Source: an uncultured Candidatus Saccharibacteria bacterium (GTDB taxonomy: Bacteria; Patescibacteriota; Minisyncoccia; Phycocordibacterales; UBA9973). From it: DNA of 64,000 nt. Below, piece by piece: positions 13,801-45,688 of this stretch. The translations under genes and the position numbers were made by a program. The stretch spans positions 9,008 through 73,007 of the forward strand of contig CAZQSY010000004.1 of the NCBI GenBank assembly GCA_964596395.1, written 5' to 3'. Below the pieces are notes generated by a model. The model had not been told where the DNA came from and did no database searches. It saw only the letters and a list, made by a program, of their open reading frames with translations. Each line of letters begins with the position of its first letter. The first letter of the stretch is position 1.

Positions 13801-16379
13801 GATAGATAGGTGTGAATATCCCTTTTGTCTCTCTTCAGCCACAATATATTGCTTTCGAGTTTTTCTATGACTTGCTCTACGGCTCGCTCGGCGCCGGGGG
13901 CGGGATGGGTTCTGAAGAATTTCTTGAATTTGCGCAAGTGCCTTTCTTCGGCGCTTCCGGAAATCGCTTTCATAAATCTGGAGAGCGTGTGTCCGCCTTC
14001 GCCGTACCTCGTGACGAAAGTTTTCCAGTTCCGGGTGATGCATTTGAGCCATGCGTCTCGGCCGAGGGGATTCATTCCGACAGAGGATATTATTCCGGAA
14101 GTATCCTGCGGGCGCACGTGCGAAGACAGCGAAAATTGTGCGGCTTTTCTAAGGATTTCCGGGGAAGAGAAGTTGCCTAAAGCGGCGCCGATCCTGTTTC
14201 TTTCTTCATGCAGCGCTTCTTTTTTGTACATTTTTATAAGCTCTTCATATTCTTTGATTCCGCCGGATTTCGCTACGATGCCGTAAATTGGAGCGCGCAG
14301 GTCCGGGTCAACCCTTTTGCCTTTTTTAATTTTTGCAAAAAGATTTTTGGCTTTTAAAATTGTTTTTTCGTCGCCGGCTTGGCCTAATATTTCTATACAA
14401 AGGGGCCGAAGCATTGAATCAGAAGGGGGTTCGTTTTTTTTCTTACTCCACCCGAGGCGGCGAAAAACAGGGGAGAACAAGCTGATAATTAAACCATCGA
14501 GATTCGCTTCGCTTCCGGTTTTGCAAAAAATTTGCTTGATTCCCCTTATGCCCAGAGCTATCGCGTGCAGGACGGAATAATCACTCTCTCTTTTATACGC
14601 TTTTAAAAATTTCAGAGCTTCGCTCGTTCTTCCGTCGCCAGATTCGGCAAGCGCGAAGAGGTCCCTTATGATTCCCAGGCGGTCCCGCGCGGAGATTTTT
14701 TTATCCCGTACCGGCTTTGCTAATCTGTCGAGCATTTTTTTGGAATAGGCGACTCTGAAAAATCCGCTTTCGCCCGCGTTTATTTTTACAAACTCGGGCT
14801 TGGAGGCCTTGCCTCCAAGCGGAGGCAAGGCCTCCAAGCTCAACTTAGTACTCTGGCTACTAAGCAGTATTTTTGCAGTATTTTTGCCGTCTCCGAAAAC
14901 AATCGGCGTTTGCCAAATTATTTTGTCTTTGTTTTTTCTTTTGGAAATTGGGCTTGAGAAAAATCTGCCCTGCGAAAGATATAAACTTTCACCCTTTATT
15001 TCTGTCTTTATGACCGGGTACCCGGGTTTGGCAGTCCAGTTTTGCATTATTTTTTTTACCGGTTTTCCCGAGATTTTTTCAAATGCTTGCCAGAGGTGCG
15101 CGGTTTCGGTGTTTTTATAGCTATGTTTTTTCAAGTAATAGCGCAGACCGTCTCGAAAATCTTTTTCTCCCAGATATTCGGCCAGCATTCTGATAATACA
15201 GGCGCCTTTTGAATACGATACCTCGTCGAAGATTTCGCCGATTTCGTCGGGGTGATGCACTTTCACTTCTACCGGATGTGTGTTGGCCAATGAATCCAAA
15301 CGGAGTGCTACTCCTAAATCCTGCACCGAAAATTGTGTCCACATATTCCATTCAGGGAAGACCTTTTCCAGCGCCAAATATTCCATATATGAGGCGAATC
15401 CTTCGTTGAGCCACAGGTGTGTCCACCACTCCATAGTCACTAGGTTGCCGAACCACTGGTGGGCAATTTCATGTGCCACGACCAAAGCCACTCTCTGTTT
15501 GTTTGTGAGCGAGGAATTTTTTTCGTCAAAAAGCAGGGCGCTTTCGCGGTAGGTAATGGCGCCCCAGTTTTCCATGGCGCCGGCGGCAAAATCCGGGACA
15601 GCTATCATATCAAGCACGGGCAGGGGGTACTTGATATCAAAATATTTTTCGTAAAAATCCAGCATTTTGGCGGCGCAAGAAAGCGCGAACCCTGCCTGAT
15701 GCTTTTTCTCGGGATGCGTAAAGACGCGCACCGCGACCCCCCGTCTGGTTTTTGTCTGGAGCATATCAAAATCTCCCACAATGAAGGCCAGGAGGTAAGT
15801 GGACATTTTCGGCGTGGGAGAAAATCTTACAATGTCAAAGCCTGCCTCGTGCTCTTTTATTGAAACCGGCAAGGTATTAGAAATCGCCGTTTTGCCTTTT
15901 TCCACCACCAGTGATACCTTGAACACGGCTCTGTGTGCTGGTTCGTCGAAACAAGGGAAAGCCCGGCGCGCGTCGGTGGCTTCGAATTGGGTAGTGGCCA
16001 TGTGGCGTTCTTTGCCGTAAAGCATATACCGGCTGCGATAGAAGCCCCGCATTTTGTCGTTCAGTATGCCTTGAAATATCAACCGTAATTTGGCCGTGCC
16101 AGCTGGTATTTTTTTAGAAAATACAAAAGTCGCGGTTTCCCTTTTTTCGTCGTAAGAAATTTTTTCGGCGAAAAGTTTTTCTGCCAATACCGTGATGCTT
16201 GCCGTCTCAATGTCTATTTCTTTGCTGTGCAGGGTTATCTCCTTTGTCGGCTTCAAGATTTTTATTTTTATCTCCTCTTCGCCTTTGAAGGTGAAGTTCA
16301 GAAGGTCCGGATGCAATTTCAAATCGTACTCCGAGGGGATTATAGACGAGTCAAGTTTTGCGGATTTTTTTTTCTGCAT
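13785..16379 (-). CDS. pepN: Aminopeptidase N (M1 family metallopeptidase)
   Basis: HEIAHQWFGNLVT...WLNEGFA zinc-binding motif and GAMEN-like GAMENWG. Confidence 0.9.
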   Translation of the reverse strand: MQKKKSAKLDSSIIPSEYDLKLHPDLLNFTFKGEEEIKIKILKPTKEITLHSKEIDIETASITVLAEKLFAEKISYDEKRETATFVFSKKIPAGTAKLRLIFQGILNDKMRGFYRSRYMLYGKERHMATTQFEATDARRAFPCFDEPAHRAVFKVSLVVEKGKTAISNTLPVSIKEHEAGFDIVRFSPTPKMSTYLLAFIVGDFDMLQTKTRRGVAVRVFTHPEKKHQAGFALSCAAKMLDFYEKYFDIKYPLPVLDMIAVPDFAAGAMENWGAITYRESALLFDEKNSSLTNKQRVALVVAHEIAHQWFGNLVTMEWWTHLWLNEGFASYMEYLALEKVFPEWNMWTQFSVQDLGVALRLDSLANTHPVEVKVHHPDEIGEIFDEVSYSKGACIIRMLAEYLGEKDFRDGLRYYLKKHSYKNTETAHLWQAFEKISGKPVKKIMQNWTAKPGYPVIKTEIKGESLYLSQGRFFSSPISKRKNKDKIIWQTPIVFGDGKNTAKILLSSQSTKLSLEALPPLGGKASKPEFVKINAGESGFFRVAYSKKMLDRLAKPVRDKKISARDRLGIIRDLFALAESGDGRTSEALKFLKAYKRESDYSVLHAIALGIRGIKQIFCKTGSEANLDGLIISLFSPVFRRLGWSKKKNEPPSDSMLRPLCIEILGQAGDEKTILKAKNLFAKIKKGKRVDPDLRAPIYGIVAKSGGIKEYEELIKMYKKEALHEERNRIGAALGNFSSPEILRKAAQFSLSSHVRPQDTSGIISSVGMNPLGRDAWLKCITRNWKTFVTRYGEGGHTLSRFMKAISGSAEERHLRKFKKFFRTHPAPGAERAVEQVIEKLESNILWLKRDKRDIHTYLSTLVD

Positions 16380-18351: not shown

Positions 18352-19106
18352 TGGAAACCGAAACATATCAAATAAAAACCCGTGATTTTGAGGGGCCGTT
18401 TCATCTCTTACTCTCGCTTATTCAGGAGAAGAAATTTTTTATCAACGACCTTTCGCTTTCACAAATAACCGAGGATTATCTCAACTACATAAAGCAAATC
18501 GGCGAGATTGATACCCGGCAGGTTTCCGGCTTTGTCGCCGTGGCGGCTACGCTGATTCTGATAAAATCCAAATCGCTACTGCCTTCGCTTAATCTTTCGG
18601 CGGAAGAGGAAGGAGACATCAAAAATCTGGAAGACCGGCTGAAGCTGTATGAATTTTATACCGAGCTCTCGGCGGGCGTGAAAAAGATTTTCGGCAAAAG
18701 AATGATTTTCGCCCCGCTTCCGCGGAAAAACGCTTTCTCTATGTTCATGCCCGACCAGAAAATTACCAGGGAAAACATGGCGAGCATAATCTTGGAGGTT
18801 TTGGGCAGGGTTCCGAAAAAAGAATTTCTTCCCGAAGTGGAGGTGAAAAAAGTCATCAGTTTAGAGGAAATGATTTCGAAGCTTTCAGAAAGAATAGAAA
18901 AAAGTTTGGAATTTAATTTCAAAGATTTTGCCTGCCTGCCGGCAGGCAGGCCGGGTCAATCCATAACGAAAGAAGAAAAGGTGGTTGTAATTATCAGTTT
19001 TCTTGCTATGCTAGAACTCGTGAGACAAGGTTTGCTTCACGTTACCCAGAGTGAGAATTTCGAAGATATCATTATTCAAAAACAACAAAATGGAACTCCA
19101 GCATAA
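18351..19106 (+). CDS. scpA: Segregation and condensation protein A
   Basis: FEGPFHLLLSLIQ N-terminus typical of ScpA. Carries an in-frame copy of the 20-bp palindrome CCTGCCTGCCGGCAGGCAGG at 18931-18950. Confidence 0.8.
   Translation: METETYQIKTRDFEGPFHLLLSLIQEKKFFINDLSLSQITEDYLNYIKQIGEIDTRQVSGFVAVAATLILIKSKSLLPSLNLSAEEEGDIKNLEDRLKLYEFYTELSAGVKKIFGKRMIFAPLPRKNAFSMFMPDQKITRENMASIILEVLGRVPKKEFLPEVEVKKVISLEEMISKLSERIEKSLEFNFKDFACLPAGRPGQSITKEEKVVVIISFLAMLELVRQGLLHVTQSENFEDIIIQKQQNGTPA
18931..18950. repeat. Family-C 20-bp perfect palindrome CCTGCCTGCCGGCAGGCAGG (copy inside scpA, in frame)
   Basis: Identical 20-mer at 22291-22310. Close variants at 44726-44743 and 34514-34534. Confidence 0.7.
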
Positions 19107-22280: not shown

Positions 22281-22330
22281 TTCTCTAATTCCTGCCTGCC
22301 GGCAGGCAGGCGCGCGAATAGGCGAATAAG
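22281..22330. repeat. 28-mer repeat tctctaattc|gcgcgaataggcgaata interrupted by a family-C palindrome insertion
   Basis: The uninterrupted copy at 1463-1492 reads tctctaattcgcgcgaataggcgaata. Here the same sequence carries ctgcctgccggcaggcagg inserted after tctctaattc. Confidence 0.65.
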
Positions 22331-25994: not shown

Positions 25995-26177
25995 CCTGTT
26001 TCTTTTGCCTCTTTTTTGTGCTATATATAAAGCGCAGCCGAGACCGGTTGCGGGTTCTTTTAGTTCGGAATTTCTTTGCTTAAGTGGAAATTCCGTCAGG
26101 CGCGATTTCTTTTTCGTTTTTGCGCCTGTATGTTTCCGCCCGCGTTTTGATACCGGTTTAAAGTGTGGGCGGAGCAT

Positions 26178-26276
26178 GGGCCTATTGTTCTGTGGTAGAA
26201 TAGCGGTCTCCACCCCGTCGCTCGCGAGCGACAGGGTCCAAGACCGTTGCCGGAAGTTCGATTCCTCCACGGCCCA
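26178..26276 (+). pseudogene. Degenerate tRNA-Trp-like sequence with a 24-nt hairpin inserted in the anticodon loop, directly abutting the GIY-YIG ORF start
   Basis: D-arm gttc/tgtggta/gaat, anticodon stem gcggt + loop ctcca(hairpin ccccgtcgctcgcgagcgacaggg)..accgt, T-arm ggaag-TTCGATT-cctcc. Acceptor pairs only 5/7. Ends 2 nt before the ATG at 26279. Confidence 0.5.
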
Positions 26277-26278
26277 CA

Positions 26279-26538
26279 TGTTTTATGTTTACGTTTTGAA
26301 GAGTAAGAAAGACAATAAGCTGTATTTCGGGTATACTGCTGACCTGAAAAAACGTTTATCTGAACACAAGAGAGGGAACGTAGAAAATACTAGCCATAGA
26401 TTGCCCGTTGAGCTTGTTTATTACGAATCTTATAGAAATATAGATGATGCGAAGGAGCGGGAAAAGAGTTTCAAAAATAGCGGTTCTGTGTATAATGGAT
26501 TGGTAAAAAGAATTAAGAGAAGTATGATGGGAGCTTAG
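26279..26538 (+). CDS. Small GIY-YIG nuclease (COG2827/UPF0213-type URI-domain protein)
   Basis: MFYVYVLKS...KLYFGYTADLKKRLSEHKRG matches the GIY-YIG core. Paralogous to 44802..45059. The TAG stop lies inside the 5' end of tRNA-Trp. Confidence 0.75.
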
Positions 26539-26602
26539 TTAAGTGGTATAACTGCGGTCTCCAAAACCGCGGTCAAGGGTCCGATTCCCTTAGCTCCCGC
26601 CA
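26529..26602 (+). tRNA. tRNA-Trp (anticodon CCA), CCA encoded
   Basis: Acceptor gggagct/agctccc, D-arm gtta-agtggta-taac, anticodon stem gcggt/accgc with loop cTCCAaa, T-arm aaggg/ccctt, discriminator g then cca. Overlaps the last 10 nt of the GIY-YIG ORF. Confidence 0.8.
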
Positions 26603-26690
26603 GAGACATTTAGGTCTCCACCCCGTCGTTCGCGAACGACGGGGTCCAAAACCGCGGTCAAGGGTCCGATTCCCTCATCGCCCGCTAGAT
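26603..26690 (+). pseudogene. Partial duplicate of the tRNA-Trp 3' portion carrying the same anticodon-loop hairpin
   Basis: aggtctcca + hairpin ccccgtcgttcgcgaacgacgggg + tccaaaaccgcggtcaagggtccgattccct... matches the tRNA-Trp 3' half with altered acceptor. No 5' half present. Confidence 0.5.
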
Positions 26691-29585: not shown

Positions 29586-29618
29586 CTGCAAGCAAAGGGT
29601 GTGGATAAAATTTTTGTG

Positions 29619-29690
29619 TGCGCCTGCGGGGAATCGAACCCTGATTACAAGTTCCGGAAACTTGCGTTCTATCCGTTGAACTACAGGCGC
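29619..29690 (-). tRNA. tRNA-Arg (anticodon CCG)
   Basis: Minus-strand cloverleaf: acceptor gcgcctg/caggcgc, D-arm gttc-aacggat-agaac, anticodon stem caagt/acttg with loop ttCCGga, T-loop TTCGATT. Confidence 0.8.
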
Positions 29691-29699
29691 GTTAAATTT

Positions 29700-29784
29700 T
29701 GGTGCCGGAGGAGAGAATCGAACTCTCATGAGTTGCCTCGCACGATTTTGAGTCGTGTGCGTCTACCAATTCCGCCACTCCGGC
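29700..29784 (-). tRNA. tRNA-Leu (anticodon CAA), long variable arm, CCA encoded
   Basis: Minus-strand: acceptor gccggag/ctccggc, D-loop with GG, anticodon loop ctCAAaa, ~15-nt variable arm, T-loop TTCGATT, terminal acca. Confidence 0.8.
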
Positions 29785-32913: not shown

Positions 32914-35205
32914 TTACTCAGTTTTTTTTAATTTATGCGGGTTATGGTTAGCGCACATTTTATTACTGCACCGCTCAGGTATGGTCTTTGTGCCGAGCAT
33001 CATTAAGCTTCCGCACATGTCGCAGATCCTGCCGGTGGGTTTGGCTTTTATCGCGAATTTGCAGTCGGGGTAATTTGAGCAGGAATAAAAAATCCCGAAA
33101 CGCCCACGGCGCTCGGTGAGTTCGCCTTTCTTACACTCTGGGCAAGCCACACCTGTTTTCTTTCTGGCCTCCTCGGCTTCATCTTTTTTAATAAACTTAC
33201 ATTTCGGATAGCGCGAGCAGGAGATAAAGGTGCCCGAGCCGTCGCGTCTTTCTTTGATTACCAGTTTGCCACCTCCATTTTTACCCTCCTTGTCTCCGCA
33301 TTCAGGGCATTTTTCGCCCGTTTCTTCCGGGCCCTTTAATTCTGTGCCGTCGAACTTCAGCGCTCCATCGCATTCGGGATATTTCGAGCAGGAATAAAAT
33401 TTCCCTCCGCGAGAGAGTTTGATTATCATCGAACTGCCGCATTTTGGGCATTTTATATTCTCCGGCGCGTCGCCCAAGTTGGTCGCTTTTTCGAGTTTTT
33501 CTTTCGATTTTATTTCTTTTAAGAACGGCCCGTAAAAATCTTTGAGCGTCTTTTCGTACTCGCGCTCGCCCCGCGAGATTTCGTCGAGTTCATCTTCCAT
33601 TTCGGCGGTGAAATTATCCGAGATGTACTTCATAAAATGTTTTTCCAAAAAGTCCGAGACAACTTCACCGGTGTCGGTGGGGAAGAGGGTGCGGTTTTCC
33701 TTGCGCACGTACTCGCGGTCTTCCAGGGTCTTCATGATTGAGGCGTAAGTAGAAGGCCGGCCGATGCCGCGCGCTTCAAGTTCTTTCACCAGGCCGGCTT
33801 CGCTGTATCTTCCCGGCGGTTCGGTGAATTTTTCTTCGCTAGATAACTCAAGCATTTTTAAATTTTCGTTTTCTTTTACTTCGGGCAGAACAACATCTTC
33901 GTTCCCGTTCGCGCTGTCAACCTTGAGCCAGCCGTCAAAAAGTATCCGCGAGCCGATAGCGGTGAAGTCGGGAAACTCAAACTTGGAAGTTGAATTTCCA
34001 CTTGGAAGTCCGACTTCCAAGTTGCTTACATTCGCGCTGATTTTTGTTTTCAGAACCTTGGCGTCGGCCATCTGCGAAGCTACCGCGCGCTCCCATATTA
34101 ACCTGTACAATCGTCTTTGCTCTTCGGTGCCCGCTTCCGCGTTTTCGACGTGGGTAGGGCGAATAGCCTCATGCGCTTCCTGCGCGTTTTTTGATTTAGT
34201 TTTGTACATACGCGGCTCGGCGTAATTTTTTCCGTATTTTTTTTCTACGAGCGCTAGAATTTGCGCTTGAGCCGCGGCGCCCAGGTTCGTGCTGTCGGTA
34301 CGCATATAAGTGATATGCCCGGCCTCGTAGAGTTTCTGCGCGAGTTGCATAGTGCGGGAAGGCGAGTATCCCAAGCGCGAGCTCGCGGTCTGCTGCAGGG
34401 TAGAGGTGGTAAAGGGCGCGCGCGGAGAGCGCTTTTGCTCGGATTCTTTGACTTCAACGATTTTCCAGTTCTCTTTTCTGCCCGTTTCCAGTATTTTTTC
34501 TACCAGTTTTTCGCCTGCCTGTCCGGTAGGCAGGTCACGCGGTTCGTCTTTGCAGGTCAGGGCCAGCTTGTCTCCCTTGCTTGTTTCAAAGACGCCGAAA
34601 ATTTTCCAGTATCTTTCGGGAACGAAAGCGCGGATTTCCCGCTCGCGTTCCATAATAATGCGAAGCGCCGGCGACTGCACTCTGCCAGCAGAGAGCCCAT
34701 AGCGCACTTTTTTCCAGATAAGGCCGGACAAATCATATCCCACCAGTCGGTCGAGCACCCTACGGGCTTCCTGGGCTCTGCGCAAGGCGGTATCTATCTC
34801 TCTCGGGTTTTTGAGGGCTTCTTCTACCGCCTCGGCGGTTATTTCGTGAAAAGTGGCGCGCTTTATCGGCGCTTTTATTTTTTTATCGCCATTTAAAATT
34901 TCTTTGATATGCCAGGCGATGGCCTCGCCCTCCCGGTCGGGGTCGGTAGCCAGAATTACCTCGTCTGCTTTTTCGGCCAAACCTTCGAGTTCGCGCACAA
35001 CTTTTTCTTTGCCTTTGGATATTTCGTAATGCGGAACAAAGCCCCCTTCGATGTCTATGGCTTTCTTGTTTGATTTTGGTAAATCGCGAATATGGCCGAT
35101 AGACGCGCGTACAACATAAGGATCCAGGTCCGCCCCTGAATTGGCGGACAGGTATTTTTCAATCGTCTTTGCTTTCGATGGTGATTCAACAATAAGTAAT
35201 CGCAT
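32914..35205 (-). CDS. topA: DNA topoisomerase I with C-terminal C4 zinc-ribbon repeats
   Basis: Toprim N-terminus, active-site Tyr region, topo IA core, and four C-terminal CxxC...CxxC zinc ribbons. Confidence 0.9.
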   Translation of the reverse strand: MRLLIVESPSKAKTIEKYLSANSGADLDPYVVRASIGHIRDLPKSNKKAIDIEGGFVPHYEISKGKEKVVRELEGLAEKADEVILATDPDREGEAIAWHIKEILNGDKKIKAPIKRATFHEITAEAVEEALKNPREIDTALRRAQEARRVLDRLVGYDLSGLIWKKVRYGLSAGRVQSPALRIIMEREREIRAFVPERYWKIFGVFETSKGDKLALTCKDEPRDLPTGQAGEKLVEKILETGRKENWKIVEVKESEQKRSPRAPFTTSTLQQTASSRLGYSPSRTMQLAQKLYEAGHITYMRTDSTNLGAAAQAQILALVEKKYGKNYAEPRMYKTKSKNAQEAHEAIRPTHVENAEAGTEEQRRLYRLIWERAVASQMADAKVLKTKISANVSNLEVGLPSGNSTSKFEFPDFTAIGSRILFDGWLKVDSANGNEDVVLPEVKENENLKMLELSSEEKFTEPPGRYSEAGLVKELEARGIGRPSTYASIMKTLEDREYVRKENRTLFPTDTGEVVSDFLEKHFMKYISDNFTAEMEDELDEISRGEREYEKTLKDFYGPFLKEIKSKEKLEKATNLGDAPENIKCPKCGSSMIIKLSRGGKFYSCSKYPECDGALKFDGTELKGPEETGEKCPECGDKEGKNGGGKLVIKERRDGSGTFISCSRYPKCKFIKKDEAEEARKKTGVACPECKKGELTERRGRFGIFYSCSNYPDCKFAIKAKPTGRICDMCGSLMMLGTKTIPERCSNKMCANHNPHKLKKTE

Positions 35206-42770: not shown

Positions 42771-43970
42771 ATGAAAAAGATTTACACGTTAGGCATAGAT
42801 ACTTCCTGCGACGACACTTCGGTGGCGGTTTTAGAGAACGACAAGGTACTCGCGAATGTGGTTTCTTCGCAAATTGACGTGCATAAAGAATGGGGCGGGG
42901 TGGTGCCGAACCTAGCGCGCCGGGAACACGAGAGATTAATTGGCGGGTGTATTGAGCTCGCTCTAAAGCGCGCGGGTTTTTTGCAATCGCCTCTGCGGCT
43001 GCATGCTTTTGCTCGGGTCCTCGGGTCGGCCGCACATGAAGTTTTGAATGGTGCGGCCTCAACCAGACCAGCTCGCAAAAGCATGCTGCCGTTTCGGCTA
43101 GGAAGTACGCCTGCGACGAGTTTCGGTGTGTTAGTTAAAAAATTAGACGCCATAGCAGTGACGCATGGCCCGGGGCTCGCACCTGCGCTTGAAGTGGGCG
43201 TGGCCTGGGCAAAAAGAATCGCCTTGGAAAATAATTTGCTTCTTATTGCCGTGAATCATATGGAAGGCCACACGCTTTCGGTATTTTTGAAAAATAAAAA
43301 CGGGAAAAATTATTCGGGGCTGAAGCAGGCAAAGTTTCCTTTTCTCGCGCTGAACGTTTCGGGTGGGCATACAGAACTCGCGTGGGTAGAGAGGTTGGGA
43401 GAATATAAAATTCTGGGGCAGACGCTGGATGACGCTGCCGGCGAATGCTTTGACAAGGTGGCGCGGATGCTTGATTTGGGATACCCGGGCGGGGAGCTGA
43501 TTTCTAAATTCGCTGAAGGCGCTAACCGGGATAAATATCCTCTGCCTCGGCCGATGCTCTGGAGCAAAGATTATAATTTTAGTTTTTCCGGCCTCAAGAC
43601 CGCTTGCCTGTATAATACGAACAAATTGAAAGAAAAACTCGGCAAAGATTTCGCCAAAATTATTCCCGATTACTGCGCTTCCGTGCAGGAAGCGATTGTT
43701 GACTGCCTAGTCATAAAAACCGCCAAAGCTGTAAAAGAATTCAAGCCGAAAATGCTCGTCTTGGGCGGGGGAGTCGCCGCGAACTCGCGCCTGCGCGCGA
43801 GAATCCGCAAAGAGGCGAAAAATTTGGGTGTACCGGTGTATTTTCCCGATAAGAAATTTACTTCCGACAACGCGGCCATGATAGCGCTCGCCGGCTATCA
43901 CAAATTTCTCCGTGGAGAATTCTCCGACCCGAAAAGATTAGAGCGCGTGCCGTCACTTAGATTGGGGTAG
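42771..43970 (+). CDS. tsaD: tRNA N6-adenosine threonylcarbamoyltransferase TsaD (Kae1/Gcp) with in-frame palindromic-element insertion
   Basis: GIDTSCDDTSVAV, HMEGH and GGVAAN motifs. There are ~45 extra residues (LQSPLRLHAFARVLGSAAHEVLNGAASTRPARKSMLPFRLGSTPATSF) between the first helix and GPGL, where homologs have about 8. Confidence 0.85.
   Translation: MKKIYTLGIDTSCDDTSVAVLENDKVLANVVSSQIDVHKEWGGVVPNLARREHERLIGGCIELALKRAGFLQSPLRLHAFARVLGSAAHEVLNGAASTRPARKSMLPFRLGSTPATSFGVLVKKLDAIAVTHGPGLAPALEVGVAWAKRIALENNLLLIAVNHMEGHTLSVFLKNKNGKNYSGLKQAKFPFLALNVSGGHTELAWVERLGEYKILGQTLDDAAGECFDKVARMLDLGYPGGELISKFAEGANRDKYPLPRPMLWSKDYNFSFSGLKTACLYNTNKLKEKLGKDFAKIIPDYCASVQEAIVDCLVIKTAKAVKEFKPKMLVLGGGVAANSRLRARIRKEAKNLGVPVYFPDKKFTSDNAAMIALAGYHKFLRGEFSDPKRLERVPSLRLG
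42995..43091 (+). repeat. Family-B palindromic element copy inserted in frame within tsaD
   Basis: Termini gcggctgcatgcttttgc ... gcaaaagcatgctgccg are retained. The interior differs from the intergenic copy by a ~14-nt indel. Confidence 0.75.
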
Positions 43971-44664
43971 TTTTTCTTTTACGCAAATCCGAAAATATTA
44001 AGATAAGGCACCAGAGCAAAACTATAGAAATTTGAATCAAGAGGTCTTGCATTCCGCCCGATGTCACGAGAACTAGCGCTTTACTGCCCATAGCGTACAC
44101 GACAATTCCGGTAATTAAATTCCAGAAGACCGATGCGCTTATCGAAGATAAAATAAATTTTTTGAAAGGTATTTTCAGTATTCCAGAAGCGGTGTCAACT
44201 ACAGTTGCCAAACTCGGCAGCCAGTAGCTTGCCCATATTGCCTTTGTGTCATTCTGTGAAAGTTTTTCTTGCGCTTCTTCGATTGATTTTTTTGTACCGA
44301 GCTTGGCTAAGAGTTTGTACCATCCGTACCTCCCGAGCACGTAATTAGTCGCGTGGGCCAATATCAATCCCAAAGTTCCCAGAAATACCCTAGTTGCGGC
44401 TTCTTCAACTGAACTTGAACTAACTATGCTCACAAAGATGACAAATAGGCCCGGAAAGTAAGCGCCGATTAAAAGAATTCCTTCCACGAAAGCGCCCGCG
44501 AAAATTACCAACAGGCCATATTTATCCATCCATGCGCTTATGCTTTTTATAAGCTCGTCAGCAGAAGGCAACCCCAAAATTTTCCAGAGGATAAATATGG
44601 AAACAAACAATGCAAGCAAGCTCAAGGGGATGGACAAAAGTTTTAGATAGTATCTGAATACCAC
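43957..44664 (-). CDS. DedA/VTT-domain family membrane protein
   Basis: DedA-like motif FAGAFVEGILLIGAYFPG and polytopic hydropathy. Confidence 0.6.
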   Translation of the reverse strand: MVFRYYLKLLSIPLSLLALFVSIFILWKILGLPSADELIKSISAWMDKYGLLVIFAGAFVEGILLIGAYFPGLFVIFVSIVSSSSVEEAATRVFLGTLGLILAHATNYVLGRYGWYKLLAKLGTKKSIEEAQEKLSQNDTKAIWASYWLPSLATVVDTASGILKIPFKKFILSSISASVFWNLITGIVVYAMGSKALVLVTSGGMQDLLIQISIVLLWCLILIFSDLRKRKTTPI

Positions 44665-44715
44665 GATTTTAATTGTATCAAATTTGTGCTATATTTTCTC
44701 TGTGTTTTGTGGTAT

Positions 44716-44790
44716 TGGGAGATCGCCTGCCTGCGCAGGCAGGTCTAACGGTAGTCACCTCATCGGCGACCCGCCGAAAAGGCGGGGACA
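44716..44790 (+). pseudogene. tRNA 5' fragment (acceptor 5' strand + D-arm) interrupted by a family-C palindrome and followed by a 36-nt double-hairpin element
   Basis: tgggagatcg[cctgcctgcgcaggcagg]tctaacggtag parallels the tRNA-Gln start tgggagatcgtctaatggtag. It is followed by tcacctcatcggcgacccgccgaaaaggcggggaca, which is repeated at 45178-45213. Confidence 0.5.
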
Positions 44791-44801
44791 AAGATTAATC
44801 C

Positions 44802-45059
44802 ATGTATTATACTTACATATTACAAAGTTTAAAAAACGAACGAATGTATGTTGGAAGTACAGATGATTTAAAAAGAAGAGTTTCTGAGCACAATTCAGGT
44901 ATAGGTGGCTTGTATACCAAAAACAATCGACCCTTTAAGTTAATATACTACGAAGCGTACATTGAGAAAAAAGACGCAAGTCGGGCAGAAAAGTTTTACA
45001 AAACAGGATACGGTAGAGAAGTTTTGAATGGTAAATTAGAGGATTATTTGAAAAAATGA
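44802..45059 (+). CDS. Small GIY-YIG nuclease (COG2827/UPF0213-type URI-domain protein)
   Basis: MYYTYILQSLKNERMYVGSTDDLKRRVSEHN matches the GIY-YIG core. Paralog of 26279..26538. Ends 17 nt before tRNA-Gln. Confidence 0.75.
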   Translation: MYYTYILQSLKNERMYVGSTDDLKRRVSEHNSGIGGLYTKNNRPFKLIYYEAYIEKKDASRAEKFYKTGYGREVLNGKLEDYLKK

Positions 45060-45075
45060 TGTTCGCGAGCAGTGC

Positions 45076-45146
45076 TGGGAGATCGTCTAATGGTAGGACT
45101 CCTCCCTTTGAAGGAGGCTATCTTGGTTCGAATCCAAGTCTCCCAG
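45076..45146 (+). tRNA. tRNA-Gln (anticodon TTG) embedded in a 14-bp perfect extension of the acceptor helix
   Basis: Acceptor tgggaga/tctccca, D-arm gtct-aatggta-ggac, anticodon stem cctcc/ggagg with loop cTTTGaa, T-arm cttgg-TTCGAAT-ccaag. Flanks ttcgcgagcagtgc (45062-75) and gcactgctcgcgaa (45146-59) are exact reverse complements. Confidence 0.8.
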
Positions 45147-45173
45147 CACTGCTCGCGAATTAAAAATTTTTAA

Positions 45174-45262
45174 GTGGTAGTCGCCTCATCGGCGACCCGC
45201 CGAAAAGGCGGGGACAGTGGCCTTTGAAGCCATTAATTTTGGTTCGAATCCAAATCTCCCAG
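45174..45262 (+). pseudogene. tRNA 3' fragment (D-loop remnant + 36-nt element + anticodon arm TTG + T-arm + acceptor 3' strand)
   Basis: gtggtag + tcgcctcatcggcgacccgccgaaaaggcggggaca + gtggc-cTTTGaa-gccat + tttgg-TTCGAAT-ccaaa + tctccca g. The 5' acceptor strand and D-stem are absent here but present in the 44716-44790 fragment. Confidence 0.5.
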
Positions 45263-45301
45263 CCCTGGGAGTAAGTCGCGGGAAAATGAAATATTTTTTA
45301 T

Positions 45302-45688
45302 ATGAGTGAAGAAAAAGACGAGAGTCAGTGGTATCAAGATTCAAAAGAGTTAGGAAAAACTTTTTTTGATCGTTGGTCTATCCTCTCAGGAGGAACTTTC
45401 ACCTTATTGATTCCATTTATTCAATCTCTAGATGGCAATATAAAATACCCAGTGTTGTTGGTAGTCATAGAGTCTATTTTGTTAGTAGCGTTACTTACCT
45501 CCTCTTTGCATTCATGGATTGCTAGTGAGATATCATACTATAATTCATTAACAGAAACAGACGAAAAAGATGAAAAGATGCAAAAATTTTATGTAGTAGC
45601 TCAAAGGATTAACCACCGTGTTGCAATTTTCTCTTACCCAATCGCCGTTGTTTTACTTTTGATTTTTATAAATTCTAACATTTTCTAA
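45302..45688 (+). CDS. Hypothetical small membrane protein (AT-rich island)
   Basis: 128 aa with 2-3 TM helices, low GC, no motif recognised. Confidence 0.4.
   Translation: MSEEKDESQWYQDSKELGKTFFDRWSILSGGTFTLLIPFIQSLDGNIKYPVLLVVIESILLVALLTSSLHSWIASEISYYNSLTETDEKDEKMQKFYVVAQRINHRVAIFSYPIAVVLLLIFINSNIF

Follow-up and report, generated by a model that had tools for sequence, protein, structure and literature searches.

A GIY-YIG nuclease gene and a complete tRNA-Gln gene nested within a split tRNA-Gln gene: an architecture conserved across Patescibacteria

Integrative elements in tRNA genes carry a copy of the displaced tRNA end, are flanked by a direct repeat at both junctions, and leave the tRNA gene intact. 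The Seg proteins of T-even phages are free-standing GIY-YIG homing endonucleases that home without an intron and are encoded beside the conserved genes that they target; SegB lies in the T4 tRNA gene cluster, and the immunity of a Seg donor comes from sequence polymorphism. The double-hairpin elements and GC clusters of mitochondria are short, GC-rich hairpin or palindromic elements that occur in AT-rich genomes and at recombination junctions and are thought to be mobile. In fungal mitochondria, the so-called mORFs (Allomyces macrogynus atp6; Glomus atp6, atp9, cox2, and nad3) are free-standing endonuclease open reading frames (ORFs), of the LAGLIDADG type or, in atp9, the GIY-YIG type, that enter essential genes together with a foreign copy of the gene part they displace; the native part remains downstream as a relic that has diverged less than the carried copy (PMC3630166). 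Among Patescibacteria, the group I introns in tRNA anticodon loops encode endonucleases whose families track tRNA identity, with HNH, LAGLIDADG, and PD-(D/E)XK enzymes reported (PMC13011429), and rRNA genes of the candidate phyla radiation (CPR) contain GIY-YIG ORFs in insertions that match neither intron class, most insertions lying at the tops or bases of stem-loops (PMC11270868). Here we compare with these systems a locus in a 64,000-nt stretch of an uncultured Candidatus Saccharibacteria bacterium (GenBank GCA_964596395.1, contig CAZQSY010000004.1, positions 9,008 to 73,007; the whole stretch is called the window), in which a gene for an 85-aa GIY-YIG nuclease and a complete tRNA-Gln gene lie inside a second, split tRNA-Gln(UUG) gene. 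With somewhat better than even confidence, we read this Gln module as one of a large family of GIY-YIG elements, intron-less and of the homing type, in CPR/Patescibacteria tRNA genes, which would disrupt a tRNA gene at a cloverleaf loop and supply its replacement.

The Gln module spans positions 44716-45262 of the window, on the forward strand, and every component listed in a first-pass annotation of this DNA was present. The outer (disrupted) tRNA-Gln gene opens with a 5' fragment (44716-44754) corresponding to tRNA positions t1-21, which differs at one base from t1-21 of the inner tRNA; between t10 and t11 it carries the perfect 18-nt palindrome CCTGCCTGCGCAGGCAGG (44726-44743), the palindrome insertion already noted in the 5' part. 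At D-loop position 21/22 there follows the left copy of a 31-nt double hairpin, here called element E (44755-44785; one A.C mismatch in hairpin 1), and then GGACA (44786-44790), which is t22-26 of the outer tRNA and ends the left 41-nt repeat. E and GGACA together make up the 36-nt element of the first-pass annotation. Eleven unrelated bases separate GGACA from the 85-aa ORF (44802-45059), the ATG lying 12 nt after the 36-nt element. Next come a 14-nt leader arm (45062-45075), the inner, intact tRNA-Gln(TTG) (45076-45147), which was called by ARAGORN and scored 63 bits against the Rfam tRNA model, a trailer arm (45146-45159), a 16-nt AT-rich spacer, and the right 41-nt repeat (45176-45216), made up of GGTAG (t17-21), the right copy of E with perfect hairpins (45181-45211), and GGACA. 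The outer gene resumes with a 3' fragment, t22-73 (45212-45262), that supplies the D-stem 3' strand, a TTG anticodon arm, the T arm, and the acceptor 3' strand. The direct repeats at 44750-44790 and 45176-45216, each with the composition GGTAG-E-GGACA, are identical at 40 of 41 positions, and their 32-nt core is present in exactly two copies in the window (0 in 100 shuffles). Alone, the outer 3' part scored 23.7 bits against the Rfam tRNA model, under the gathering score. When 44716-44754 was joined to 45181-45264 and the palindrome and E were removed, ARAGORN called a canonical 74-nt tRNA-Gln(TTG), bearing out the claim that the fragments reconstitute a second tRNA-Gln. Folding of the whole 566-nt stretch far exceeded that of shuffles (z = -6.0). 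The acceptor 3' strand of the outer tRNA-Gln also folds back onto a downstream CTGGGAG (45256-45271; CTCCCAGCCCTGGGAG), which could form a small terminal hairpin or be the stub of another 5' fragment.

Exact look-ups of the flanks returned only two short Logan contigs, both from the same sample (SRR15237813; L116 and L117); these carry the two flanking genes and stop inside the left and right copies of E, indicating that the repeat breaks short-read assemblies. An assembly artifact is nevertheless excluded as the origin of the module, because the design recurs in more than 100 independent assemblies.

Relatives of the nuclease gene were scanned in a collection holding one genome per species, in which at least 575 confirmed relatives were found among the 600 candidate stretches listed; 80 loci were kept, and the locus counts given below are tallies from the result tables. 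All named homologs of the Gln ORF were from Patescibacteria (some third-party assembly labels, such as "uncultured Gammaproteobacteria," are probably unreliable and were not relied on). In about 52 of the 80 loci an intact tRNA gene lay 1 to 130 nt downstream on the same strand, and in about 15 more one lay within 200 nt upstream; the tRNA adjacency seen in the window is thus shared by related ORFs. Among relatives at least 57% identical to the window protein, nearly every ORF preceded a tRNA-Gln gene (UUG or CUG), more distant nuclease clades went with Val, Ser, Gly, Pro, Ile, Glu, or Trp tRNAs, and in neighbor-joining order the ORFs clustered by tRNA type (Gln, Val, Ser, and Gly).

Alignment of the intact tRNA to the flanks showed that, in nearly all Gln-clade loci with a recognizable 5' fragment, t1-21 is repeated 40 to 90 nt before the ATG, with E at D-loop position 21/22; E stood ahead of the ORF in every such locus examined. 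The 5' fragments differ from t1-21 of the inner tRNA at about 4 of about 450 positions, compared with at least 9 of 126 for the t22-35 segment by the ATG. After E, a further tRNA piece running from t22 to about t35-38 extends to the ATG in Gln-clade loci, which places the ORF at the anticodon-loop position of the outer tRNA copy and E in its D-loop. Two layouts recur. Type A (e.g., L014, L026, and L128) consists of a leader plus t1-38 with E, the ORF, and a leader plus a complete tRNA; type B (the window, L001, L011, L063, and L123) has the same order and adds E and the outer tRNA 3' part after the intact tRNA. The order ORF, intact tRNA, and E-3' fragment was found in about 20 of 25 metagenome matches to E plus the anticodon arm, and most loci have E upstream of the ORF only. 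Additional hairpins are frequent in the outer fragments, both in the anticodon loop and at T-loop position 54/55, and the 18-mer CCTGCCTGCGCAGGCAGG recurs in the D-arm of the 5' fragment of L102, L128, and L130, placed 2 nt further 3' than in the window.

Derivatives of the module were also found. L091 has lost the ORF and keeps fragment-E, tRNA, and E-fragment; the last 24 codons of the ORF remain in L099, and L097 and L104 have no ORF. Two tandem fragment-E-ORF units precede a tRNA-Glu gene in L021 (1100-1830), L093 (1380-1625) has tandem identical 3' tRNA-Gln fragments, and L109 (123-330) has two successive 3' tRNA-Gln fragments whose D-loop hairpins differ; these three loci record repeated events. 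In the Ser and Glu clades (L075, L078, L079, L082, L084, L086, and L064; about 1000-1200 in each), the intact tRNA lies upstream of the ORF, and a 65- to 120-nt spacer at the tRNA 3' end holds a different double hairpin, bracketed by a CGCC(A) repeat. A replacement tRNA is unnecessary in that arrangement, and comparison of the Ser/Glu and Gln layouts indicates that the unit constant across clades is the hairpin element plus the ORF, with a loop or the 3' end of a tRNA gene as its site. The first-pass annotation had proposed that a nuclease cassette carrying its own replacement tRNA inserted into a resident tRNA gene. As far as a recent, private insertion is concerned, this does not stand: tRNA-nested GIY-YIG cassettes are a conserved architecture across Patescibacteria.

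Support for the other half of that proposal, the replacement, came from the tRNAs themselves. The inner tRNA of the window is identical to its own outer tRNA at 57 of 71 positions, with four of the five anticodon-stem pairs differing, and to the inner tRNA of L011 at 70 of 71; the outer tRNA is closest to the inner tRNA-Gln of L001 (65/71), with 63/71 to that of L128. In L011 and L111, the outer halves are complementary to each other in their acceptor strands and unlike the inner tRNA (TGGGGTA/TACCCCA and TGGGGGA/TCCCCCA), which argues that the outer gene was once a working tRNA of another lineage and was split later. The acceptor strand of the 5' fragment likewise differs from the inner tRNA in L123; inner and outer tRNAs are alike in L001, L063, and L128. 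Sequence comparison thus supports an inner tRNA that behaves as a replacement of foreign lineage, and the inner tRNA-Gln(UUG) of the window is presumably a functional gene whose lineage differs from that of the outer one. The ORFs group differently, with L001 joining L011 (dN 0.081), rather than the window joining L011; since the inner tRNA links the window to L011, the module is a mosaic.

By analogy, the mORFs of fungal mitochondria offer the closest mechanism. An endonuclease ORF, a carried copy, and a displaced native fragment occur together in one locus, and the carried tRNA of the window (but not that of L001, L063, or L128) is of a different lineage from the displaced one: as with a mORF, the cassette tRNA resembles the native copy less (57/71) than it does the cassette tRNA of another genome (70/71). 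The differences are that the host is a CPR bacterial chromosome, that the target is a tRNA gene instead of a protein gene, that the cassette of the window supplies a whole tRNA with the ORF ahead of it, that a conserved hairpin marks the junction, and that the nuclease has only 85 aa, mORF endonucleases being larger. Integrative elements of tRNA genes use integrases, target the 3' end, and measure kilobases, whereas the cassette, at about 0.4 kb, lacks an integrase and interrupts the D- or anticodon loop of the gene. Seg genes are intergenic, unlike the cassette, which nests inside a disrupted copy and whose E is absent from viral contigs. With the CPR rRNA insertions the module shares its hosts and the presence of GIY-YIG ORFs in non-intron insertions.

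The ORF encodes a GIY-YIG protein, as had been proposed. Pfam PF01541 (GIY-YIG) matched residues 1-72 with an E value of 3.3e-18 (66 bits; cut-off, 22.6), and Y5, Y16, G18, R26, H30, and E63, to which we assign catalytic roles on the assumption that they correspond to those of I-TevI and UvrC, were invariant in 28 family members; the superfamily is expected to conserve the two motif tyrosines, a Gly, an Arg, a His/Tyr, and a metal-binding Glu. A sequence search of the PDB returned 1zg2 (2.9e-13) and then SLX1 (1.6e-5). The AF2 model of the 85-aa protein (pLDDT, 94.6) agreed: Foldseek matched it to UPF0213, SLX1, the I-TevI catalytic domain, and the UvrC N-terminal domain, with UPF0213 and SLX1 at the top (TM of 0.65-0.72 to SLX1; E of 1e-4 to 1e-3 for SLX1/UPF0213 versus 0.1 for I-TevI). 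Sequence and predicted fold therefore point to a GIY-YIG nuclease nearest SLX1/UPF0213 and farther from the I-TevI catalytic domain. UPF0213 proteins, of which BH0048 and EF2693 are solved examples, are stand-alone, single-domain GIY-YIG proteins and are closest by both sequence and fold; E. coli YhbQ is another. In the searchable literature, no tRNA-gene association or mobility of UPF0213 proteins is described. SLX1 is reported to need SLX4 and to have a RING domain (PMC8287910). I-TevI and Seg proteins combine a catalytic domain with a separate DNA-binding domain, C-terminal in Seg, for a total of about 200-250 aa, whereas in the Gln protein the catalytic domain is the whole 85 aa; membership in the I-TevI/Seg group fails for want of a DNA-binding domain. 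This composition would fit a structure-sensing enzyme better than a long-site homing enzyme. Among relatives, pN was 0.08-0.20 and pS was 0.71-0.90, values that indicate strong purifying selection on the ORF with synonymous sites saturated. A PADLOC scan for defense systems gave no meaningful match. In databases, the window ORF is recorded only as a 71-aa gene call (P0004), and gene callers stretch other family members into the flanks: P0119 begins VVASSATRRRGGD, which is translated E, and P0053 and P0029 end in translated tRNA or leader.

A weak match to the NCBIfam model "group I intron endonuclease" (28 bits; cut-off, 56) and the position of the ORF at t35-38 of the anticodon loop in the best-preserved loci would be expected if the gene were a former intron-encoded endonuclease whose ribozyme decayed and whose host tRNA was superseded by a duplicate, and group I introns are common in the tRNA genes of Patescibacteria (PMC13011429). 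However, Rfam returned no group I or group II intron match at E of 10 or less in 44500-45500, nor at the gathering score in the whole window, but only tRNA, and a ribozyme would not fit into the noncoding DNA between the fragments, which amounts to 11 nt ahead of the ORF and 16 nt behind it. Moreover, the architecture is conserved as such across clades, and the tRNA intron endonucleases described from Patescibacteria are HNH enzymes, not GIY-YIG enzymes (PMC13011429). We consider the decayed group I intron close to refuted. Membership among such introns fails because there is no ribozyme; the module shares their hosts and their kind of target (tRNA genes, anticodon loop) but would keep tRNA function by means of a spare gene, not by splicing.

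Element E was described in the first-pass annotation as part of the D-loop of the second tRNA-Gln. Its position there was right, but the hairpin belongs to the cassette rather than to the resident tRNA: it precedes the ORF, and a pattern scan found it in no free-standing full-length tRNA among 25 metagenome loci. In 26 distinct E sequences, 99% of cells were paired, a level reached in 0 of 500 shuffles (slid controls, 26-62% paired), and 4 of the 11 pairs, two in each hairpin, had undergone compensatory double changes (hairpin 1, UA to CG and CG to UA; hairpin 2, CG to UA and GC to AU), a covariation that is compatible alike with an RNA hairpin, a DNA hairpin, and a symmetric duplex site. The right copy in the window is identical to E of L001 at 31 of 31 positions although the adjacent ORF is saturated at synonymous sites (pS 0.77, pN 0.09); E is thus under constraint at the level of sequence and not of structure alone. 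Damage, in the form of mismatches or nested insertions, is more frequent in right-hand copies (L093, L095, L099, and L123), so function probably belongs to the copy ahead of the ORF; the window is exceptional in having its single mismatch in the left copy. Unlike the mitochondrial double-hairpin elements, E is not dispersed (2 copies in 64 kb, both in the Gln module) and keeps to a single ORF family and a single tRNA position. Candidate roles are a nuclease binding site (for autoregulation or targeting), disruption of the nuclease site in the relic, and insulation of RNA folding.

Two other roles were considered for E. With its threshold lowered, ARAGORN assembles a tRNA out of E and the 3' fragment (window, L093, and L094), but a surrogate acceptor/D-arm was rejected because the E stem is constant while acceptor stems vary between genomes, with no covariation. 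In about 15 of 25 loci the ATG follows the G-run of hairpin 2 by 5-13 nt, and elsewhere by up to 41 nt; E as a hairpin that sequesters a Shine-Dalgarno sequence is possible but not general.

The near-perfect 21-nt tRNA match adjoining E invites a more adventurous proposal, that a transcript of t1-21 plus E serves as a 21-nt guide with a double-hairpin scaffold that steers the minimal nuclease to those tRNA genes whose 5' part matches, analogous to the transposon-end-derived guide RNAs of TnpB and IscB. The drift of t22-35, the lack of a DNA-binding domain in the protein, and a GNNRA pentaloop in hairpin 2 of E would suit such a scheme; loops of this type are typical of protein-bound RNA hairpins. 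Still, we rate guide-like targeting as very doubtful. We know of no RNA-guided GIY-YIG enzyme, there is no fixed "guide" length (a whole tRNA stands upstream in the Ser and Glu clades and t1-36 in the Trp clade), the leader upstream of t1 is also duplicated in L014 and L026, pointing to duplication or conversion rather than guide selection, and the inner tRNA would itself be targeted. Only slightly less doubtful is the broader notion that the 85-residue, domain-less nuclease owes its target specificity to E, acting as a nucleic-acid cofactor by itself or jointly with the neighboring 21 nt of tRNA, in a guide-like or structure-directed manner (e.g., by cutting cloverleaf-extruded tRNA-gene DNA). 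If true, it would be a new targeting principle for the smallest known site-directed nucleases.

A feature additional to those first annotated is a perfect 21-bp helix around the inner tRNA (45062-45082 with 45139-45159), in which the leader and trailer arms extend the 7-bp acceptor stem by 14 bp. Leader/trailer helices that extend the acceptor stem by 6-16 bp were present in 15 of 67 ORF-associated tRNAs and in 3 of 44 others, those 3 being ORF-less type B loci. The arms are wholly different between loci and yet complementary, with frequent G.U pairs (15 related loci covary). The helix is confined to type B-like loci, most of which have a downstream 3' fragment or remnant, and the presumed single transcript of such loci would include three tRNA segments that are identical in part. 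We infer that the helix acts as an RNA-level clamp or processing stem by which the inner tRNA would fold on itself and be excised from the transcript.

The window contains only two GIY-YIG ORFs, the second of which lies in a Trp module, also on the forward strand. There, an upstream, full-length tRNA-Trp copy (26178-26277) carries a 24-nt palindrome (26213-26236) and a TCCA duplication in its anticodon loop and was recognized by ARAGORN only after both had been removed. It is followed by an 86-aa GIY-YIG ORF (26278-26538; 37% identical to the Gln ORF), the stop of which is a TAG formed by t8-10 of the intact tRNA-Trp(CCA) (26529-26602), and then by a 3' tRNA fragment (26613-26684) whose anticodon loop holds the same palindrome, CCCCGTCGTTCGCGAACGACGGGG (26621-26644). 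In its acceptor 3' strand this fragment is of the type found in the tRNA-Trp of relatives (L131 and L138), not of that in the intact tRNA-Trp of the window. CCCCGTCGTTCGCGAACGACGGGG is a conserved element of the Trp clade, where it lies 11-18 nt ahead of the ATG. The first-pass annotation had described the Trp locus as organized in the same way as the Gln locus; the logic is indeed the same, but the details differ in the full-length upstream copy, the placement of the palindrome in the anticodon loop, and the ORF stop inside the tRNA. Upstream, about 150 nt (26030-26177) between a promoter-like motif and the upstream tRNA-Trp hold several hairpins and end in GGGCGGAGCAT, which could pair (6/7) with the downstream 3' fragment at its acceptor 3' strand; the GGGCGGAGCAT stretch may be an outermost, older tRNA-Trp stub. 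The remaining tRNA genes, tRNA-Arg(CCG) and tRNA-Leu(CAA) (29618-29784, reverse strand), are 10 nt apart and have no GIY-YIG ORF, so two of the four tRNA genes of the window carry a module.

In both modules the duplication is centered on the hairpin, as [t17-21.E.t22-26] in Gln and as [t29-36.P.TCCAA] in Trp, P being the palindrome. Recombination between hairpin copies, which the first-pass annotation had offered as another origin of the duplicated junction, is a live alternative. E or the Trp palindrome would be a recombination site, the E-ORF-tRNA unit would integrate by E x E exchange (Campbell type) or move as a hairpin-bounded unit, the nuclease would cut extruded hairpins, and the 41-nt duplication would represent the recombination joints. 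The 4-nt TCCA duplication flanking the Trp palindrome, the CGCC(A) flanking the Ser-clade hairpins, the ORF-less E-tRNA-E unit of L091, the nearness of the protein to SLX1 (a cutter of branched and stem-loop DNA), and the occurrence of every junction in a cloverleaf loop are all in keeping with it. However, its expected product or target, a full-length E-bearing tRNA without a cassette, was not found among the 25 metagenome hits; moreover, E stands only upstream of the ORF in most loci, right-hand E copies decay, no recombinase or transposase is encoded, and we know of no GIY-YIG enzyme that rejoins DNA. On this evidence, hairpin-directed recombination or transposition seems to us rather improbable.

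For the Gln module we favor instead the homing-type reading introduced above, in which the unit would comprise a clade-specific hairpin element (E in Gln, the 24-nt palindrome in Trp), the gene for the 85-aa SLX1/UPF0213-like nuclease, and a whole tRNA whose identity is that of the interrupted gene. The native tRNA-Gln(UUG) would have been broken in the D-loop/anticodon region; its 5' part (t1-21, E, and t22-26), still preceded by the old tRNA promoter, would now form a leader for the nuclease gene, and its 3' part (E and t22-73) would have been displaced downstream. A putative promoter of the resident tRNA gene, the extended -10-like TTGTGCTATATT, lies at 44684-44695 on the forward strand. 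Its 11-mer TTGTGCTATAT, which by sequence looks like an extended -10 promoter, is present in exactly two copies in the window (26016-26026 and 44684-44694), one ahead of each GIY-YIG/tRNA module, at a distance of 22 nt from the Gln 5' fragment and of about 150 nt from the upstream Trp copy; transcription probably starts there, although a simple sigma-70 scan called no promoter at 44684-44695. TGnTAnnnT motifs that resemble TTGTGCTATAT also precede the modules in L012, L137, and L138. Glutamine codons would then be read by the cassette-borne inner tRNA, which the leader/trailer helix would clamp for correct folding and release from the transcript. The nuclease would cut a cassette-free tRNA gene at a cloverleaf loop, and the break would be repaired from the cassette-bearing copy, with the tRNA fragments serving as homology arms and the hairpin, ORF, and spare tRNA being copied in. 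Since the essential tRNA would never be lost, no intron or intein would be needed. Annealing of the new strand at the inner tRNA would yield type A, with no 3' fragment and no trailer arm, and annealing at the 3' fragment would yield type B; self-cutting followed by repair from the upstream fragment would yield tandem units such as those of L021.

Several observations weigh against the homing-type reading. The first concern mechanism: with no DNA-binding domain in the protein, site-specific cleavage of a tRNA gene goes unexplained, and a nuclease that targets intact tRNA genes ought to cut the inner one as well, a self-cleavage problem that is most acute in type A and is sharpened by L128, where inner t1-38 equals the 5' fragment. 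The duplicated junction [t17-21.E.t22-26] is not a product of textbook homing and is left unexplained, as is the placement of all junctions in cloverleaf loops. Others concern history. Among the matches listed, no orthologous site held a cassette-free allele; the module was present in every relative found, no close relatives of the source genome were available, and the best homologs of the DedA-like flanking gene (43957-44664) used in this search were 55-60% identical and had unrelated neighborhoods. L001 and L123 share with the window a Dus-holB...tRNA-Gln module order, and in the window holB lies 4 kb upstream of the Gln module and encodes a HolB 68.6% identical to that of L001. A Ddl-L33-module order is syntenic at the Trp locus. 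The holB and Ddl-L33 synteny suggests that the loci themselves may be old and vertically inherited. The first-pass annotation had named ancestral synteny with no empty site as grounds for abandoning insertion, and part of this picture was found: L001 and L123 are loosely syntenic, just downstream of holB, and the matches listed included no empty site. With a holB homolog 4 kb upstream in the window, the Dus-holB context of L001 amounts to loose synteny and does not serve as a different neighborhood that would prove mobility. Finally, among 2.9 million viral contigs, E had no hits and the protein had only three distant relatives, and a phage vector was rejected on these grounds.

These same facts could be accommodated by a domesticated, vertically inherited operon that arose once or a few times early in CPR evolution, with the tRNA-derived leader and E acting as a regulatory or processing RNA, the nuclease having a cellular role such as repair at highly transcribed tRNA genes, and the fragments being old scars with no ongoing homing. 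Purifying selection on the ORF at synonymous saturation, sequence-level constraint on E and t1-21, the loose Gln and clear Trp synteny, the absence of an empty site from the matches listed, and the absence of E from viral contigs are all consistent with such an operon. Nevertheless, we regard it as unlikely, for a host gene has no need to sit inside a destroyed copy of the tRNA that it precedes, and there are many paralogous clades, each tied to a different tRNA, with two in this 64-kb window alone. Nor would it predict that the inner tRNA groups the window with L011 while the ORFs group L001 with L011, that the 5' fragment acceptor strand is unlike the inner tRNA in L011, L111, and L123 and the outer halves pair in L011 and L111, or that ORF-less, truncated, tandem, and stacked derivatives occur. 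Such discordance between inner tRNA and ORF, together with those derivatives, indicates a gene history at odds with the host or flanks and a cycle of invasion and decay, as in homing endonuclease genes.

Other short repeats and palindromes were observed in the window. CCTGCCTGCGCAGGCAGG belongs to a dispersed family of GC-rich palindromes of the form CCTGCCTGC..GCAGGCAGG (18930-18951, 22291-22310, 34514-34534, and 44726-44743), two copies of which lie inside long ORFs (259 and 767 aa), and GC-rich hairpins with stems of at least 7 bp number 19 in the window, versus about 5 in Markov controls. A 42-nt palindrome (14798-14839; 19-bp arms, 4-nt center) lies inside an 867-aa minus-strand ORF. Within tsaD (42771-43970), the TsaD Pfam match is split (best stretch, aa 119-372, matching profile positions 45-263), and about 50 extra residues are encoded by an in-frame, nested inverted-repeat element of about 150 nt (42975-43125) that is reminiscent of the Rickettsia palindromic elements.

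We found no published description of tRNA-nested or tRNA-linked GIY-YIG modules in CPR bacteria, in agreement with the first-pass statement that no such tRNA-flanked module was known. To our knowledge, colonization of an essential gene by bringing a spare copy has so far been documented for protein genes in fungal mitochondria; a homing endonuclease that entered tRNA genes in this way would follow that third route, besides introns and inteins. At a practical level, the modules break assemblies and yield tRNA fragments and mis-started small ORFs in annotation. The nucleases, minimal at 85 aa, abundant, under strong purifying selection, and always paired with a conserved hairpin, offer an appealing system in which to ask how a GIY-YIG domain on its own locates its target. 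For the CPR bacteria themselves, which have tiny genomes and often single-copy tRNA genes, cassettes that overwrite tRNA genes with foreign copies would drive tRNA turnover and xenologous replacement across the superphylum.

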